Source: a virus
Taxonomy: Duplodnaviria > Heunggongvirae > Uroviricota > Caudoviricetes
Reading direction: 5' to 3' (one strand)
Length of the DNA stretch: 14,445 bases
IMG/VR virus record: IMGVR_UViG_2529292722_000020
A model generated the notes under the pieces. It ran no database searches, was not told where the DNA came from, and worked only from the letters and a program-made list of their open reading frames with translations. The first letter of the stretch is position 1; every line of letters begins with the position of its first letter. Both the position numbers and the translations under genes were made by a program. Positions 3,886-14,445 of this stretch are shown here, piece by piece.

Positions 3886-4536
3886 ATGAATACACAACTG
3901 ATGGGTGAGCGTATTCGCGCTCGCAGAAAAGAACTCAAGATTAGGCAGGCTGCCCTTGGCAAGATGGTTGGCGTGTCTAATGTTGCTATTTCCCAATGGG
4001 AGCGATCTGAAACTGAGCCCAATGGCGAAAACCTATTGGCCTTAGCCAAGGCTTTGCAGTGCTCCCCTGATTACCTGTTGAAAGGAGAGGATAGTCTTTC
4101 AAACATTGCCTATCACAGCAGGCATGATCCAAGAGGTTCGTATCCTCTAATTAGTTGGGTAAGCGCAGGATGTTGGATGGAAGCTGTAGAGCCATATCAT
4201 AGGCGTGCAATAGATAACTGGTACGACACAACGGTAGATTGTTCTGAAGACTCTTTTTGGCTCGACGTTAAAGGCGATTCAATGACTGCCCCGGCAGGAC
4301 TGAGTATTCCTGAGGGGATGATTATTCTCGTCGACCCAGAAGTCGAACCACGTAATGGAAAGCTGGTAGTCGCCAAACTTGAAGGGGAAAACGAGGCGAC
4401 ATTCAAAAAGTTAGTTATTGATGCCGGTAGAAAATTCCTGAAACCACTCAATCCACAATACCCAATGATTGAAATCAATGGGAACTGTAAAATCATTGGC
4501 GTTGTCGTTGATGCCAAGCTAGCAAACCTTCCTTAA
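3886..4536 (+). CDS. c2: Phage repressor, P22 c2 type (N-terminal HTH domain plus C-terminal LexA/S24-like autocleavage domain)
   Basis: 216 aa; N-terminus MNTQLMGERIRARRKELKIRQAALGKMVGVSNVAISQWERSETEPNGENLLALAKALQCSPDYLLKG matches remembered P22 c2; the C-terminal half has the GDSM...K serine-lysine dyad pattern. Confidence 0.9.
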   Translation: MNTQLMGERIRARRKELKIRQAALGKMVGVSNVAISQWERSETEPNGENLLALAKALQCSPDYLLKGEDSLSNIAYHSRHDPRGSYPLISWVSAGCWMEAVEPYHRRAIDNWYDTTVDCSEDSFWLDVKGDSMTAPAGLSIPEGMIILVDPEVEPRNGKLVVAKLEGENEATFKKLVIDAGRKFLKPLNPQYPMIEINGNCKIIGVVVDAKLANLP

Positions 4537-6466: not shown

Positions 6467-6621
6467 GTTTTACAGATAACTGGTCAGACGAAGAATTCAT
6501 TCGTCAGATGAAAGAATTAATCGGTAACGAAGGAGATATTCATGTCACTTGCAACCACAGTGAAGGAGAGCAAGTTACAGAGACGCATGTACACGCAGAA
6601 AGCTCTCTGGTATCGCCATAA
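6463..6621 (+). CDS. Small acidic protein (52 aa) in the kil position
   Basis: ATG 6463 overlaps the cIII-like stop (ATGA). Assigned by position only. Confidence 0.3.
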   Translation: MSFTDNWSDEEFIRQMKELIGNEGDIHVTCNHSEGEQVTETHVHAESSLVSP

Positions 6622-6720
6622 TGGCGACCGCGAAGGAATGCGGGTATGCCTTAATTTGTCCCGAGTCGAAGTATTAAATCAGCGTTATTTCCTTGGGCCG
6701 TGTCCATTCTGAGGTGAATT

Positions 6721-7428
6721 ATGGATTTGAATAAATTCGATGAGCCATTCAGCCCTGAAGATATCGAATGGCGAATACAGCAAAGCGGTAAAACACGCGA
6801 TGGCAAGGGGTGGGCTATGGTGCTGGCTTATGTCACGAACCGGGCAATCATGAAACGCCTGGACGATGTTTGCGGCAAAGCAGGATGGCGCAATGAATAC
6901 CGCGATATTCCCAACAACGGCGGCGTTGAATGCGGCATATCAATAAAGATTGATTCCGAATGGGTAACCAAATGGGATGCTGCTGAAAACACGCAGGTAG
7001 AAGCCGTCAAAGGTGGTCGTTCAGGTGCAATGAAGCGCGCTGCCGTTCAGTGGGGAATCGGTCGGTATCTGTATAACCTTGAGGAAGGTTTCGCACAAAC
7101 ATCTCTCGATAAAAAGCAGGGATGGCACAGGGCAAAACTCAAGGATGGAACAGGATTTTACTGGCTCCCTCCATCGCTGCCGGGATGGGCAATACCAGCA
7201 TCAGATAACAAACCATCACCAGAAAATACCAACCAGAAATCTCCATCGGTTGACTGCGAACAAATCCTGAAAGACTTCAGCGATTATGCGTCAACAGAAA
7301 CTGACAAGAAAAAACTCATCGAGCGTTATCAGCGTGACTGGCAATTAATGGCTGGCAACGAGGAGGCGCAGGCTAAATGCGTTCAGGTAATGAACATCAG
7401 AGTTAACGAACTAAAACAGGCGGCATAA
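6721..7428 (+). CDS. Rad52-family single-strand annealing protein (Sak-like recombinase)
   Basis: GAGGTGA Shine-Dalgarno before ATG 6721; AYVTNRAIMKRLDDVCGKAGW and GAMKRAAVQWGIGRYLYN match Rad52 N-domain patterns ([20 protein letters not shown] and KRALRSFGNALGN); occupies the bet position. Confidence 0.7.
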   Translation: MDLNKFDEPFSPEDIEWRIQQSGKTRDGKGWAMVLAYVTNRAIMKRLDDVCGKAGWRNEYRDIPNNGGVECGISIKIDSEWVTKWDAAENTQVEAVKGGRSGAMKRAAVQWGIGRYLYNLEEGFAQTSLDKKQGWHRAKLKDGTGFYWLPPSLPGWAIPASDNKPSPENTNQKSPSVDCEQILKDFSDYASTETDKKKLIERYQRDWQLMAGNEEAQAKCVQVMNIRVNELKQAA

Positions 7429-7896
7429 ATGTCTCACTTGGACGGAATTATTAAAAGATTCGAGTCCAGCTACAAAGTTAATGAAACAACAGGTTGCTGG
7501 GAGTCTACCTATTCAAAAAACAAAGGAGGATACACAAAATTTGTAGCCTTTGGCGTAACAATGCTTTCTCATCGGGTTGCTTTTGAGCTTTATCACTCCC
7601 CCATTCCATCTGGGAAGATGGTTTGCCACAAATGCGATAACCCATGCTGCGTTAATCCTGAACATCTCTTTTTAGGTAGCGCGCAAGAAAACATGGACGA
7701 CAAGATAGCAAAAGGAAGGCATCGTGGAGCCAAGAAAGGTCATGCTCATCATGGTGCAAAATTAACAGAGTGGCAGGGTATAGAAATTAGGAAAAGACTC
7801 TCTGAAAAAGAGAGTCAGTACAAGATAGCAAAAGACATGGGTGTATCTCAATCAATTATAAGCAACATAAAAACTGGCAAGAGGTGGAGCAAATGA
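7429..7896 (+). CDS. HNH homing-type endonuclease with C-terminal HTH
   Basis: HNH motif [26 protein letters not shown]; start abuts the SSAP stop (TAAATG); the end overlaps the SSB start. Confidence 0.8.
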
Positions 7897-8399
7897 GTTC
7901 TCGCGGGATAAATAAGGTGATTATCCTTGGTCGGGTAGGACAAGACCCGGAAGTTCGATACTCACCATCAGGAACAGCGTTCGCTAACCTGACAATAGCC
8001 ACGTCAGAACAATGGCGAGATAAAAATACTGGCGAGCAAAAGGAATTGACTGAATGGCATCGTGTTGCTGTATCCGGGAAACTGGCTGAGGTCGTGGGGC
8101 AGTATGTGAAAAAAGGTGATCAGATTTATTTCGAGGGAATGCTGAGAACCAGAAAATGGAAAGACCAGTCAGGGCAAGACCGTTACACAACCGAGGTTCA
8201 TGTCGGAATTAATGGCGTGATGCAAATGCTTGGCGGCATTGGCGACAGCAAACAACAAGCAGCCAGCAGGCAATCACAGAAGCCACAGCAGCAATCATCA
8301 CCAGCACAACACAACGAACCTCCGATGGATTTTGACGACGATATACCCTTTGCACCAGTAACTCTCCCCTTCCCTCGTCACGCTATTCACGCAATTTAA
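7893..8399 (+). CDS. ssb: Single-stranded DNA-binding protein SSB, with a 15-aa extension after the DDDIPF tail
   Basis: [23 protein letters not shown]...TEWHRVAV...[11 protein letters not shown] closely resembles E. coli SSB; GAGGTG Shine-Dalgarno 6 nt before ATG 7893. Confidence 0.9.
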
Positions 8400-8407
8400 G
8401 GACTTAC

Positions 8408-8956
8408 ATGAATCACTTAATGGTTGACCTTGAAACAATGGGCAACGGGCCATACGCGCCAGTTATTTCTATTGGGGCGGTATTCTTTGACCCGAATACC
8501 GGAGAAACAGGAGAAGAGTTCTCGGTAAATATCTCGCTTGAGTCATCAATGCGATATCGGGCGCGTCCTGACGCTTCAACGATTTTATGGTGGATGGAAC
8601 AGAGTGAAGAAGCCAGAAAATCGCTAACCAGCAACACTCAAGAGCTTTCAACAGCTCTTTCATGGTTATCTGAATTCATCATAAAGAACGCTAACCACAA
8701 ATTCGTTCAGGTTTGGGGGAATGGAGCATCATTTGACTGCGTTATTCTCCGCAACAGTTATTCGCTGACAGGGCAGCCAGTTCCGTGGCAGTGGTGGAAT
8801 GACCGCGACGTAAGAACAATCGTCGAGCTTGGAAAGGTAATAGGATTCGACCCTAAGCGAGATATGCCATTCAAAGGAACTCGCCACAACGCGCTTGATG
8901 ATGCCATCCACCAAGCCAAATACGTTTCAGCGATCTGGAAAAAGTTAGCTAAATAA
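8408..8956 (+). CDS. DnaQ-like (DEDDh) 3'-5' exonuclease
   Basis: Exo I motif MVDLETMG and Exo III motif HNALDDAIHQAKY; sits in the phage recombination module. Confidence 0.7.
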   Translation: MNHLMVDLETMGNGPYAPVISIGAVFFDPNTGETGEEFSVNISLESSMRYRARPDASTILWWMEQSEEARKSLTSNTQELSTALSWLSEFIIKNANHKFVQVWGNGASFDCVILRNSYSLTGQPVPWQWWNDRDVRTIVELGKVIGFDPKRDMPFKGTRHNALDDAIHQAKYVSAIWKKLAK

Positions 8957-8972
8957 TCAACCGGAGAAAAAC

Positions 8973-9266
8973 ATGCCAGCGCCTTTGTATGGTGCGGATG
9001 ACCCGCGCCGCTGTTCCGGCAATTCTGTATCGGAGGTGCTGGATAAATTCAGAAAAAACTACGATCGAATAATGTCTCTACCGCAGGAAACGAAAGAGGA
9101 AAAGGAATTTCGCCACTGTATATGGCTTGCAGAGAAAGAAGAACGCGAGCGAATTTACCAGACATCAATCCGACCATTCCGCAAAGCCACATATACCCAC
9201 TTCCCTGAAATTGACCCGCGCCTGCGTCATTACCGCTCACGCTATGGCGCTATCAGTAATGACTGA
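8973..9266 (+). CDS. Hypothetical protein (97 aa)
   Basis: ORF with a GGAGA Shine-Dalgarno; no family recognised. Confidence 0.5.
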   Translation: MPAPLYGADDPRRCSGNSVSEVLDKFRKNYDRIMSLPQETKEEKEFRHCIWLAEKEERERIYQTSIRPFRKATYTHFPEIDPRLRHYRSRYGAISND

Positions 9267-9731: not shown

Positions 9732-9880
9732 GTAACCGTTTTTACATGATGTGCTTGCGTGAAACTGTAGGTGATAACGCCTCATTCCATTGCCATAACG
9801 GCAATGAGCATGGCGAGATGGCTATGAAGCATGGAAAACGCCTGTCGAAGTATATTGTGATGAGTGGGGTGGGTGAATGA
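9728..9880 (+). CDS. Hypothetical small Cys/His-containing protein (50 aa)
   Basis: GTG 9728 sits 6 nt after AAAGGAGG and overlaps the upstream stop (GTGA); its own stop overlaps the methyltransferase start (ATGA). Confidence 0.4.
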
Positions 9881-10605
9881 TTTGCCTTCACAACGCAGAC
9901 TGCTTTGACATCTTTCCGCAAATCGCCAGCAACTCCGTAGATCTTGTATGTGCCGATATTCCATATGGAACAACTCGGTGTCGCTGGGATTCTGTTCTCG
10001 ACCTGCAGTTGATGTGGAAGCAGATTTACCGTATTTCCAAACCGAACGCTGCAATTGTTCTGTTTTCCGCTCAGCCTTTTACCAGCGTGCTGGTCAACAG
10101 CAATCTTCGTGACTGGAAAACAGAATGGATTTGGGAAAAGCCACACGCGACAGGATTTTTGAACGCAAAAAAACAACCTTTAAGAGCGCATGAAAATATT
10201 GAAGTTTTTTACAGAAAGCAACCGACATACAACCCACAGATGACGTATGGGAACGCCAGAAAAACCTCAACAAGAGGTAGGCTGAATACTGATGTATATG
10301 GCGATGCGCTGAAAAAGGTCGTTTACGATTCAACAAGTCGCTATCCGAGAGACGTGCAGAAATTCTCCAGCGACAAGCAAAAGCAGGCACTTCATTCAAC
10401 ACAAAAGCCACTGGCTCTGGTGAGATATCTGATTGAAACATATAGCAATATTGGCGACACAGTGTTGGATTTCACTATGGGTAGCGGAACTACTGGCGTT
10501 GCGTGCCAACAATCAGGACGCCGATTTACAGGAATAGAAAAAGATCCAGAAATTTTTCGTATCGCATTAGAGCGTATGGGAATTAAACAGGAGCATGCAG
10601 CATGA
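9877..10605 (+). CDS. Orphan DNA methyltransferase, beta class (N6-adenine or N4-cytosine)
   Basis: Motif IV-like DIPY (CADIPYG) near the N-terminus and motif I FTMGSGTTG near the C-terminus, the beta-class order; no adjacent restriction endonuclease. Confidence 0.8.
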   Translation: MICLHNADCFDIFPQIASNSVDLVCADIPYGTTRCRWDSVLDLQLMWKQIYRISKPNAAIVLFSAQPFTSVLVNSNLRDWKTEWIWEKPHATGFLNAKKQPLRAHENIEVFYRKQPTYNPQMTYGNARKTSTRGRLNTDVYGDALKKVVYDSTSRYPRDVQKFSSDKQKQALHSTQKPLALVRYLIETYSNIGDTVLDFTMGSGTTGVACQQSGRRFTGIEKDPEIFRIALERMGIKQEHAA

Positions 10606-12467: not shown

Positions 12468-12668
12468 ATGCAACACGAACTACAGCCTGATTCACTGGTT
12501 GATTTGAAATTCATCATGGCCGATACTGGCTTTGGTAAAACCTTCATCTACGACCGGATTAAGTCCGGCGACCTGCCAAAAGCCAAAGTTATCCACGGGC
12601 GAGCAAGATGGTTATATCGTGACCATTGTGAATTCAAAAATAAGCTCTTAAGCCGCGCCAATGGGTAA
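12468..12668 (+). CDS. AlpA/Xis-family excisionase-like DNA-binding protein
   Basis: 66 aa with winged-helix pattern ...MADTGFGKTFIYDRIKSGDLPKAKVIHGRARWLYRDHCEF...; sits at the integration-proximal end of the prophage. Confidence 0.7.
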   Translation: MQHELQPDSLVDLKFIMADTGFGKTFIYDRIKSGDLPKAKVIHGRARWLYRDHCEFKNKLLSRANG

Positions 12669-12741
12669 AATAGCGGGTAAAATATTTCTCACATCTAAAA
12701 AACACCATTCTAATCAATCCCCTGCCGCGTCAAGTAGATGT

Positions 12742-12756
12742 CTGCAGGGGACACCA
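12742..12756 (+). other. 3'-terminal fragment of tRNA-Arg argW (acceptor 3' strand plus CCA); host side of the attachment junction
   Basis: CTGCAGGGGACACCA matches the argW 3' end as I recall it; it is the direct continuation of the fragment at 12433-12448. Confidence 0.55.
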
Positions 12757-13197
12757 GATACCCTTCAAACGAAATCTACCTTCACCCCGTAAAAGATGGG
12801 TTTGGCAGCACACTTGCCTTATATCTACTCATTTTTACTGCAACAGGTTGAAATCTCAGCACTGTCAGAAAGCGCTGATGACTAAACAGCCCTGGGCCGG
12901 GCGATGTAACCATCACACAGAATCCTGATAGCGAAATATGGCGTGACTCGATACTTCACTCCGCAATGCATTCCTTGATGAATTCGCAGGACCGTGATAC
13001 ACGGGACAGGTCACTGAATGACGACAATGTCCTGGAAATCAGCGAACCGCGCATCTGAAGTACATTTGAGCGACTGTACCAGAACATGAATGAGGCGTTT
13101 GGATTAGGCGATTATTAGCAGGGCTAAGCATTTTACTATTATTATTTTCCGGTTGAGGGATATAGAGCTATCGACAACAACCGGAAAAAGTTTACGT

Positions 13198-14445
13198 CTA
13201 TATTGCTGAAGGTACAGGCGTTTCCATAACTATTTGCTCGCGTTTTTTACTCAAGAAGAAAATGCCAAATAGCAACATCAGGCAGACAATACCCGAAATT
13301 GCGAAGAAAACTGTCTGGTAGCCTGCGTGGTCAAAGAGTATCCCAGTCGGCGTTGAAAGCAGCACAATCCCAAGCGAACTGGCAATTTGAAAACCAATCA
13401 GAAAGATCGTCGACGACAGGCGCTTATCAAAGTTTGCCACGCTGTATTTGAAGACGGATATGACACAAAGTGGAACCTCAATGGCATGTAACAACTTCAC
13501 TAATGAAATAATCCAGGGGTTAACGAACAGCGCGCAGGAAAGGATACGCAACGCCATAATCACAACTCCGATAAGTAATGCATTTTTTGGCCCTACCCGA
13601 TTCACAAAGAAAGGAATAATCGCCATGCACAGCGCTTCGAGTACCACCTGGAATGAGTTGAGATAACCATACAGGCGCGTTCCTACATCGTGTGATTCGA
13701 ATAAACCTGCATAAAAGACAGGAAAAAGTTGTTGATCAAAAATGTTATAGAAAGACCACGTCCCCACAATAAATATGACGAAAACCCAGAAGTTTCGATC
13801 CTTGAAAACTGCGATAAAATCCTCTTTTTTTACCCCTCCCGCATCTGCCGCTACGCACTGGTGATCCTTATCTTTAAAACGCATGTTGATCATCATAAAT
13901 ACAGCGCCAAATAGCGAGACCAACCAGAAGTTGATATGGGGACTGATACTAAAAAATATGCCGGCAAAGAACGCGCCAATAGCATAGCCAAAAGATCCCC
14001 AGGCGCGCGCTGTTCCATATTCGAAATGAAAATTTCGCGCCATTTTTTCGGTGAAGCTATCAAGCAAACCGCATCCCGCCAGATACCCCAAGCCAAAAAA
14101 TAGCGCCCCCAGAATTAGACCTACAGAAAAATTGCTTTGCAGTAACGGTTCATAAACGTAAATCATAAACGGTCCGGTCAAGACCAGGATGAAACTCATA
14201 CACCAGATGAGCGGTTTCTTCAGACCGAGTTTATCCTGAACGATGCCGTAGAACATCATAAATAGAATGCTGGTAAACTGGTTGACCGAATAAAGTGTAC
14301 CTAATTCCGTCCCTGTCAACCCTAGATGTCCTTTCAGCCAAATAGCGTATAACGACCACCACAGCGACCAGGAAATAAAAAAGAGAAATGAGTAACTGGA
14401 TGCAAAACGATAGTACGCATTTCTGAATGGAATATTCAGTGCCAT
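13198..14445 (-). CDS. cscB: Sucrose:H+ symporter CscB (LacY-family oligosaccharide permease)
   Basis: 415-aa multi-transmembrane protein; N-terminus MALNIPFRNAYYRFASSYSFLFFISWSLWW matches my recollection of E. coli CscB. The window ends exactly on its start codon. Confidence 0.85.
   Translation of the reverse strand: MALNIPFRNAYYRFASSYSFLFFISWSLWWSLYAIWLKGHLGLTGTELGTLYSVNQFTSILFMMFYGIVQDKLGLKKPLIWCMSFILVLTGPFMIYVYEPLLQSNFSVGLILGALFFGLGYLAGCGLLDSFTEKMARNFHFEYGTARAWGSFGYAIGAFFAGIFFSISPHINFWLVSLFGAVFMMINMRFKDKDHQCVAADAGGVKKEDFIAVFKDRNFWVFVIFIVGTWSFYNIFDQQLFPVFYAGLFESHDVGTRLYGYLNSFQVVLEALCMAIIPFFVNRVGPKNALLIGVVIMALRILSCALFVNPWIISLVKLLHAIEVPLCVISVFKYSVANFDKRLSSTIFLIGFQIASSLGIVLLSTPTGILFDHAGYQTVFFAISGIVCLMLLFGIFFLSKKREQIVMETPVPSAI

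Follow-up and report, generated by a model that had tools for sequence, protein, structure and literature searches.

Locus and gene order

The DNA analyzed here (IMG/VR record IMGVR_UViG_2529292722_000020), referred to below as the window, is a stretch of 14,445 nucleotides from an E. coli prophage of the lambdoid or P22-like kind, whose early-left region it covers. A prophage in E. coli ETEC-2264 matches it at 99.9% identity, and there the RefSeq annotation gives the same trio of single-strand annealing protein (SSAP), HNH, and ssb genes. The features of the window are as follows; loci and alleles without the HNH gene are called empty.

3886-4536, plus strand: cI-like repressor
Between the cI-like repressor and the SSAP gene, plus strand: small early genes
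6721-7428, plus strand: Erf-like (Rad52/22-type) SSAP gene, the left homology arm (Pfam PF04098 Rad52_Rad22, 4.9e-26; PHROG 1097 "Erf-like ssDNA annealing protein," 2e-129)
7414-7428, plus strand: conserved SSAP 3' end AAACAGGCGGCATAA (coding for ...KQAA*), containing a Shine-Dalgarno-like AGGCGG
7429-7892, plus strand: 464-bp segment missing in empty alleles (alignment with mEp235, Sf6, and Bas106)
7429-7896, plus strand: HNH endonuclease open reading frame (ORF), 155 aa, intact in 23 of 23 distinct haplotypes
7570-7695, plus strand: HNH (His-Me finger) catalytic core with cysteine cluster, aa 48-89 (Pfam HNH_3, invariant residues, fold matches)
7762-7884, plus strand: C-terminal helix-turn-helix (HTH), a putative DNA-binding domain, aa 112-152 (weak Pfam CENP-B_N hit, PHROG HTH hits, AlphaFold)
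7880-7889, plus strand: AGAGGTGGAG in the last HNH codons, a putative replacement Shine-Dalgarno for ssb (sequence reading)
7893-8399, plus strand: phage ssb, 168-aa allele, the right homology arm (Pfam SSB, 1.7e-36; allele found with and without HNH)
7896-7908, plus strand: recoded ssb patch (nt 4 to 16), AGTTCTCGCGGGA here versus GCAAGCAGAGGCG in empty alleles, with ten substitutions in 13 nt
8408-8956, plus strand: DnaQ-like 3'-5' exonuclease
8973-9266, plus strand: Abc2 anti-RecBCD
9877-10605, plus strand: DNA methyltransferase
12468-12668, plus strand: TorI-like excisionase
Right of the excisionase gene, minus strand: host cscB

The HNH gene begins at the base after the SSAP stop codon (TAA, 7426-7428; HNH ATG at 7429), and its TGA (7894-7896) overlaps the ssb ATG (7893-7895) by 4 nt, as ATGA. 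Both boundaries are as an earlier note on this DNA had read them. The SSAP gene is unaltered by the insertion, with no fixed difference between HNH-containing alleles and their nearest empty alleles.

Other features of the region concern the history of the prophage. On the right (12468-14445), host sucrose genes (cscB, minus strand) come immediately after the TorI-like excisionase gene, and the interval lacks an integrase gene. Either the integrase may be encoded at another place or the prophage may be defective. On the left, positions 1-222 are the end of an IS100 istA gene. Just left of the window, the ETEC-2264 prophage has a fragment of a second HNH gene, annotated as a partial pseudogene, that adjoins a separate AP2-domain gene, with the IS100 element right beside both (294-737 and 922-2723 of that locus, L004). 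An intact gene joining HNH_3 and AP2 domains is found in a related locus (L010, 7670-8179). Several homing-type nucleases are thus housed in these prophage early regions.

The 168-aa SSB extends past the canonical acidic tip in its last 15 codons (8352-8399). Compared with the C-terminal end of Sf6 gp26 (L002, 2913-3392), this tail looks like the result of a deletion that fused ssb to the last 14 codons of a gp26-type gene, which would place the partner-binding tip internally. The allele is common: 35 of 74 empty loci have it, as do mEp235 and other viable phages.

Domains and predicted fold of the HNH protein

We analyzed the 155-aa product by profile, structure, and population comparisons. 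Pfam HNH_3 (PF13392) matched aa 48 to 89 at 51 bits, against a cut-off of 24.8, and PHROG families 59, 1872, and 6254, each labeled "HNH endonuclease," matched at 1e-30 to 1e-33. The gene therefore encodes a protein of the HNH (His-Me finger) family, as first proposed, by a curated threshold and three PHROG families. In an alignment of 65 sequences, all family-invariant residues are present in the window protein (C23, R49, H67, C69, D70, C74, P77, H79, L80, G83, N88, D91, K95, and R97), and it has the conserved catalytic and metal-binding residues (H67, D70, H79, and N88, with cysteines C23, C69, and C74) and, in the model, the beta-beta-alpha fold of HNH nucleases.

The AlphaFold model has a mean pLDDT of 90.9 and consists of an N-terminal beta region, the His-Me finger core, and a three-helix C-terminal domain. 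Helices 114-125, 130-137, and 141-149 form the three-helix bundle, modeled with pLDDT above 90. The same region (aa ~112 to 152) gave a weak CENP-B_N/psq match and several PHROG HTH matches, and the only NCBIfam match of the protein, also weak, was to the HTH of serine invertase. The domain search that the earlier note had proposed for a C-terminal DNA-binding region thus yielded a three-helix HTH, with weak profile matches.

A Foldseek search of the PDB with the model returned I-HmuI (1u3e) as the top match, with an alignment over the full length that included the C-terminal HTH (E = 4.4e-4, probability 1.00), with I-PpoI next. It is the Foldseek probability that supports the match, not superposition, which gave a TM-score of 0.37 and an rmsd of 10.7; the low TM-score is likely due to the extended multidomain shape, modeled without DNA. 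A sequence search of PDB chains returned only designed proteins, at E values of 0.04 or higher, and the link to I-HmuI came only through the fold search. By the model, the architecture may be I-HmuI-like, with a beta region at the N terminus, an HTH at the C terminus, and between them a His-Me finger core that carries a cysteine cluster. In PADLOC (E < 0.001), the sole match of the protein was to the "homing endonuclease" model, and no defense system was matched.

Between three enterobacterial HNH lineages, pN is 0.12 to 0.19 and pS is 0.70 to 0.86. With pN so far below pS, the gene is under purifying selection.

Presence and absence at the SSAP-ssb junction

The earlier note had called for a comparison of SSAP-ssb junctions in related prophages and would have given up an insertion if the HNH gene were universal in the module. 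Among 80 IMG/VR loci whose SSAP is at least 99% identical to that of the window, ssb directly follows the SSAP stop in 71 and the HNH gene is present in 9. The junctions thus differ by precise presence or absence, and the gene is far from universal, with empty junctions in cultured phages as well. In mEp235, mEpX2, HK75, and epsilon34, the ssb ATG comes straight after the SSAP TAA with no HNH gene; in mEp235, locus position 2429 is the last of the SSAP gene and 2430 the first of ssb.

Megablast of window positions 6500-8960 against GenBank phages matched mEp235 and mEpX2 at 97.7% identity in two pieces, without the 464 bp, and gave the same kind of two-piece match for HK75, ECP1, epsilon34, and g341c. 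About 970 of 5,426 complete E. coli genomes match part of the module, and only 41 contain the 464-bp insert, at 99.4 to 99.8% identity. Such presence or absence at one precise site among near-identical genomes is expected of a homing endonuclease gene. None of the isolated phages in GenBank carries the gene at the DNA level, and the best protein match among them, at 61%, is in a Vibrio phage; all cases are therefore prophages or uncultivated contigs. The gene lies in the early-left operon between SSAP and ssb, and not next to terminase or portal genes as HNH genes of the HK97 gp74 type do.

Some E. coli genomes contain rearranged or repeated copies. In E. coli E2348/69 genomes (hits H101, H108, and H109), two places in each match the 464-bp sequence. 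In strain Z0117EC0133 (L102, 3001-3368), the HNH gene is truncated at its 5' end where the early region joins phage DNA-ejection genes; we considered this as a new insertion site and rejected it as the product of prophage rearrangement. In strain Z1323PEC0012 (L103, 1-2846), the HNH-ssb pair is intact, and a short way upstream of it erf is broken by ISCro1, an element of the IS66 family. The ISCro1 insertion explains this locus, which was likewise rejected as a new site.

A recoded patch at the start of ssb

With the HNH gene, ssb starts ATG AGT TCT CGC GGG ATA; without it, ATG GCA AGC AGA GGC GTA. In every case, the ssb that follows HNH differs from the nearest ssb of an empty locus at nt 4, 5, 6, 7, 8, 9, 10, 12, 15, and 16, and where both have the same allele there are only 0 to 4 other differences in 507 nt. 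Synonymous switches keep Ser3, Arg4, and Gly5 (AGC to TCT, AGA to CGC, and GGC to GGG), and the protein is altered only at A2S and V6I. The ATGA overlap forces the change at nt 4 and, on a wider count, those at nt 4 to 6, which then need no explanation through immunity; the remaining changes are not forced.

The element had been taken to be the ORF at 7429-7896. The ORF stands, and the footprint is larger, extending to 7908, since ssb nt 4 to 16 are recoded in every HNH-containing allele. The whole element is 464 bp plus the 13-nt patch, with a footprint of 7429-7908.

We scanned 2.9 million IMG/VR contigs for junction patterns and found 30 junctions of the HNH end with recoded ssb and at least 120 of the SSAP end with unrecoded ssb. 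In the same contigs there were no junctions of the SSAP end with recoded ssb and none of the HNH end with unrecoded ssb. The SSAP end with recoded ssb was also absent from GTDB, searched with one genome for each of 185,579 species. HNH presence and the patch are thus perfectly linked.

The ssb gene of the host, E. coli K-12, opens ATGGCCAGCAGAGGCG / ATGGCCAGCAGAGGCGTAAAC and is of the unrecoded type; of its 13 patch positions, 12 agree with the putative target. The unrecoded host sequence makes the empty state ancestral and means that the patch came in together with the gene. We rejected an origin of the empty state by HNH deletion, given this host sequence and the lack of any recoded but empty junction in IMG/VR or GTDB.

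Homing endonuclease genes are expected to sit in carrier alleles that differ from the empty allele beside the insertion point, and the ten substitutions are such a difference. Read from the sequence, the patch is a putative self-immunity change in the target that would shield the carrier from cleavage, and the ssb gene of empty alleles is the probable carrier of the recognition site. Insertion itself leaves the sequence on the ssb side undisrupted; the need for recoding thus suggests that the recognition sequence is mostly on that side of the insertion point.

Conversion tracts and diversity

The same HNH gene precedes three strongly diverged ssb alleles, of 168, 171, and 157 aa. In a locus with the 171-aa allele (L101), donor-like sequence stops at ssb nt 16 and the recipient type has taken over by nt 30; in a locus with the 157-aa allele (L054), the corresponding positions are nt 69 and nt 84. 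These switch points differ, as expected of co-conversion tracts and not of a fixed cassette boundary. Co-conversion of flanking donor sequence with variable tract ends is a feature of homing.

For the erf, HNH, and ssb genes, nucleotide diversity across 23 distinct haplotypes came to 1.87%, 0.30%, and 12.8%, respectively, and segregating sites in erf start 19 nt from the HNH start. The element is thus more uniform than its flanks in diverged backgrounds, again as homing predicts. The 168-aa ssb allele, the usual partner of HNH, is itself low in diversity (0.43%), and for this reason part of the spread may be ordinary module exchange of an HNH-ssb block instead of endonuclease-driven conversion.

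Putative translation signals at the insertion point

The AGGCGG near the end of the SSAP gene lies 6 to 11 nt before the following ATG and would serve ssb in empty alleles and the HNH gene here. The last HNH codons are AAG AGG TGG AGC AAA TGA, and the AARAGGTGG motif is kept in all three enterobacterial HNH lineages and in distant relatives. We infer that these codons give ssb a strong new Shine-Dalgarno sequence and a coupled ATGA start. The HNH gene would take the old ribosome-binding site and start position of ssb, and its own last codons would resupply ssb. Insertion would thus do little harm, because the HNH gene reuses these signals and donates a new Shine-Dalgarno sequence with the ATGA overlap.

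Relatives occupy the 5' end of ssb

A second HNH lineage, with 73% aa identity to the window protein, occurs in Cronobacter and other Enterobacteriaceae. Two of its loci, L009 and L010, have 5 differences in the 464 nt of HNH, and their identity drops to about 50 to 75% past ~25 nt upstream of HNH and past ssb nt 26. This is again an island of identity like that of the first lineage. Upstream, one locus has an SSAP gene of the P22 ERF type and the other has one of the Rad52 type, and the ssb alleles that follow HNH in this lineage vary in length between 151 and 191 aa. A third lineage, in Citrobacter, is 74% identical and has the same site and the same patch.

More distant relatives, at 51 to 61% aa identity (a Vibrio phage, Shewanella algae, and metagenomic contigs), are all immediately 5' of ssb with a stop/start overlap, and the gene upstream is variously ERF, a Gp157-like protein, an RdgC/FtsK-gamma protein, or an unknown. 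Such steady placement before ssb is a further sign of homing. One relative, at 43% identity, is in a T7-like context without ssb. The earlier note had described a free-standing homing endonuclease in a conserved gene pair. The polymorphism, patch, and conversion signatures support the free-standing homing endonuclease; the pair does not hold, since with a varying upstream gene the element is tied to the 5' end of ssb rather than to SSAP-ssb.

The last ~15 nt of the SSAP gene, AAACAGGCGGCRTAA (KQAA-stop), are shared by the P22 ERF-type and Rad52-type SSAPs, both of which precede HNH; in loci L009 to L020 they lie around position 3986-4000. The shared enterobacterial ends follow from a common C-terminal domain of these SSAPs, as noted for epsilon34 (PMC2629481). 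On the other side, ssb alleles that otherwise diverge agree almost completely over their first ~29 nt. The SSAP end and ssb start form a conserved junction that could also act as a boundary for mosaic recombination.

A search of the literature found no description of an ssb-linked HNH clade. The gene is a member of a well-known kind of element and arguably represents a newly delimited clade specific to the ssb start.

Probable homing and alternative explanations

We consider it probable, with good confidence, that the gene is a free-standing HNH homing endonuclease gene inserted precisely at the phage ssb start codon. The polymorphism, the patch linkage, the variable tract ends, the low HNH diversity, the purifying selection, and the fold underlie this explanation; cleavage, its exact target, and the translational arrangement are what we infer from them. 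Homing would begin in a cell that contains both an HNH-containing and an HNH-less lambdoid or P22-like genome, after two phages co-infect it or one infects a lysogen. The HNH protein, made from the early-left operon, would nick or cut the HNH-less allele in or beside the first ~16 to 25 nt of ssb (ATGGCAAGCAGAGGCGTAAA...). Homologous recombination from the HNH-containing genome would repair the break, a task well matched to the flanking Erf and SSB genes, and would copy in the 464-bp gene, the recoded ssb codons 2 to 6, and a variable length of donor ssb. The carrier would be protected, its ssb nt 4 to 16 being rewritten with almost no change to the SSB protein.

Two explanations without homing appear very unlikely to us. 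One takes the HNH protein to be a working nuclease subunit of the phage Rec module with Erf and SSB, like lambda Exo or RecE, and not selfish. The gene is always inside the Rec module in a position translationally coupled to ssb, and a 2025 survey of lambdoid Rec modules regards tightly packed HNH genes, such as that of ES18, as probably legitimate members (PMC12315714). The HNH gene of that survey, however, is probably a different one, of the Sf6 gp26 type and 3' of ssb. A module nuclease should co-occur regularly with the SSAP, but here the gene is missing from 71 of the 80 modules sampled and from the viable mEp235, mEpX2, and HK75, and it occurs independently of the DnaQ-like exonuclease, with it in the window and without it in L101. 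A subunit role also leaves unexplained the patch, the variable tract ends, and an island of identity made up of HNH and 16 to 70 nt of ssb. The other takes the gene to be an inactive relic that cuts nothing and spreads passively by mosaic recombination at conserved SSAP-end and ssb-start boundaries. Diverged modules share conserved stretches of about 15 nt at the SSAP end and about 30 nt at the ssb start, which alone could be recombination junctions, and the 168-aa ssb allele travels with HNH in most cases. Nevertheless, the ORF is intact with all family-invariant residues kept in 23 of 23 haplotypes, selection between lineages is strongly purifying, the clade stays 5' of ssb down to 51% identity, and passive exchange fails to explain why the patch never parts from the gene. 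Both seem highly improbable next to this evidence.

A main function in exclusion is unlikely, if somewhat less so. Here the enzyme would chiefly be a weapon that cuts the ssb start of HNH-less phages, and possibly of plasmids or the host, with spread by conversion as a by-product. The same facts fit, with a recoded, putatively resistant site in carriers and a putatively sensitive one in non-carriers, and the putative target is nearly identical in the host ssb (the 12 of 13 patch positions given above). Marker exclusion and homing are two outcomes of one cleavage, and these data do not separate them. PADLOC, though, gave only its homing endonuclease model and no defense system. Moreover, from established lambdoid biology, the early-left operon would be repressed in a lysogen, which would limit a role in defense.

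Beyond homing itself, there is a small chance that the target is the first ~20 nt of ssb and that on induction the HNH protein also harms host or competitor ssb while the recoded phage ssb resists; the target sequence is almost matched in the essential chromosomal ssb of the host and is perhaps also in ssb genes of plasmids and other phages. If so, a homing endonuclease would double as a device for host takeover or competitor exclusion, directed against a universal replication gene.

The ssb element probably represents intronless homing in nature, in temperate phages of the lambdoid and P22-like kinds, and it is well documented. It is a clean, neat example, but an ordinary one that would not surprise a specialist. 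The putative target is legible from the sequence, through the 13-nt patch and two mapped tract ends, and the clade holds the ssb start in phages of Enterobacteriaceae, Vibrio, and Shewanella. The locus offers a concrete predicted recognition sequence, with possible use as a site-specific nickase or cutter, and suggests how a selfish gene that donates a new ribosome-binding site can enter at a start codon harmlessly. For annotation, it cautions that HNH genes in lambdoid recombination modules are not automatically module nucleases.

Comparison with known systems

The Sf6 gp26/ES18-type zinc-ribbon "endonuclease" resembles the HNH gene in being a small, sporadic, nuclease-like gene of the same module beside ssb, and it has been proposed as a true Rec-module nuclease (PMC12315714). 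It differs in lying 3' of ssb where HNH lies 5', in its unrelated sequence, and in having no Pfam hit. Cysteine-rich genes of this kind follow ssb in some relatives, as in Sf6 (gp26; L002, 2913-3392) and Bas106 (L003, 2709-3188). We considered the Sf6/Bas106 gene as an alternative occupant of the HNH site and rejected it, as it is located after ssb and is unrelated. Across the population, ssb is flanked by two independent optional nuclease genes.

I-HmuI of Bacillus phage SPO1 is the top fold match and may share the order of parts (N-terminal beta DNA-binding region, His-Me finger, C-terminal HTH) at a similar size (155 aa for the HNH protein and 174 aa for I-HmuI), and both are in the Pfam HNH_3 neighborhood. 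In the structural alignment with its TM-score of 0.37, identity is ~18%, and the cysteine cluster of the protein described here (C23, C66, C69, and C74) sets it apart from I-HmuI. I-HmuI is encoded in a group I intron of a DNA polymerase gene and nicks one strand, whereas the HNH gene here is free-standing between two genes; with its ORF flush against the SSAP stop and running into the ssb start, an intron would have no space.

The free-standing homing endonucleases of T-even phages (SegG next to gene 32, SegF, and MobE) act by intronless homing, in which the endonuclease-lacking allele is cut, flanking markers are co-converted, and the carrier is protected by differences in the target sequence. 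As in those phages, the endonuclease gene here lies between conserved genes, and SegG also adjoins the gene of a single-strand-binding protein. The Seg enzymes are of the GIY-YIG family and the T-even phages are virulent, whereas the HNH gene described here is in temperate lambdoid or P22-like prophages. Unlike the T-even Seg genes, it sits where the start codon of its target gene was and would give that gene a new ribosome-binding site.
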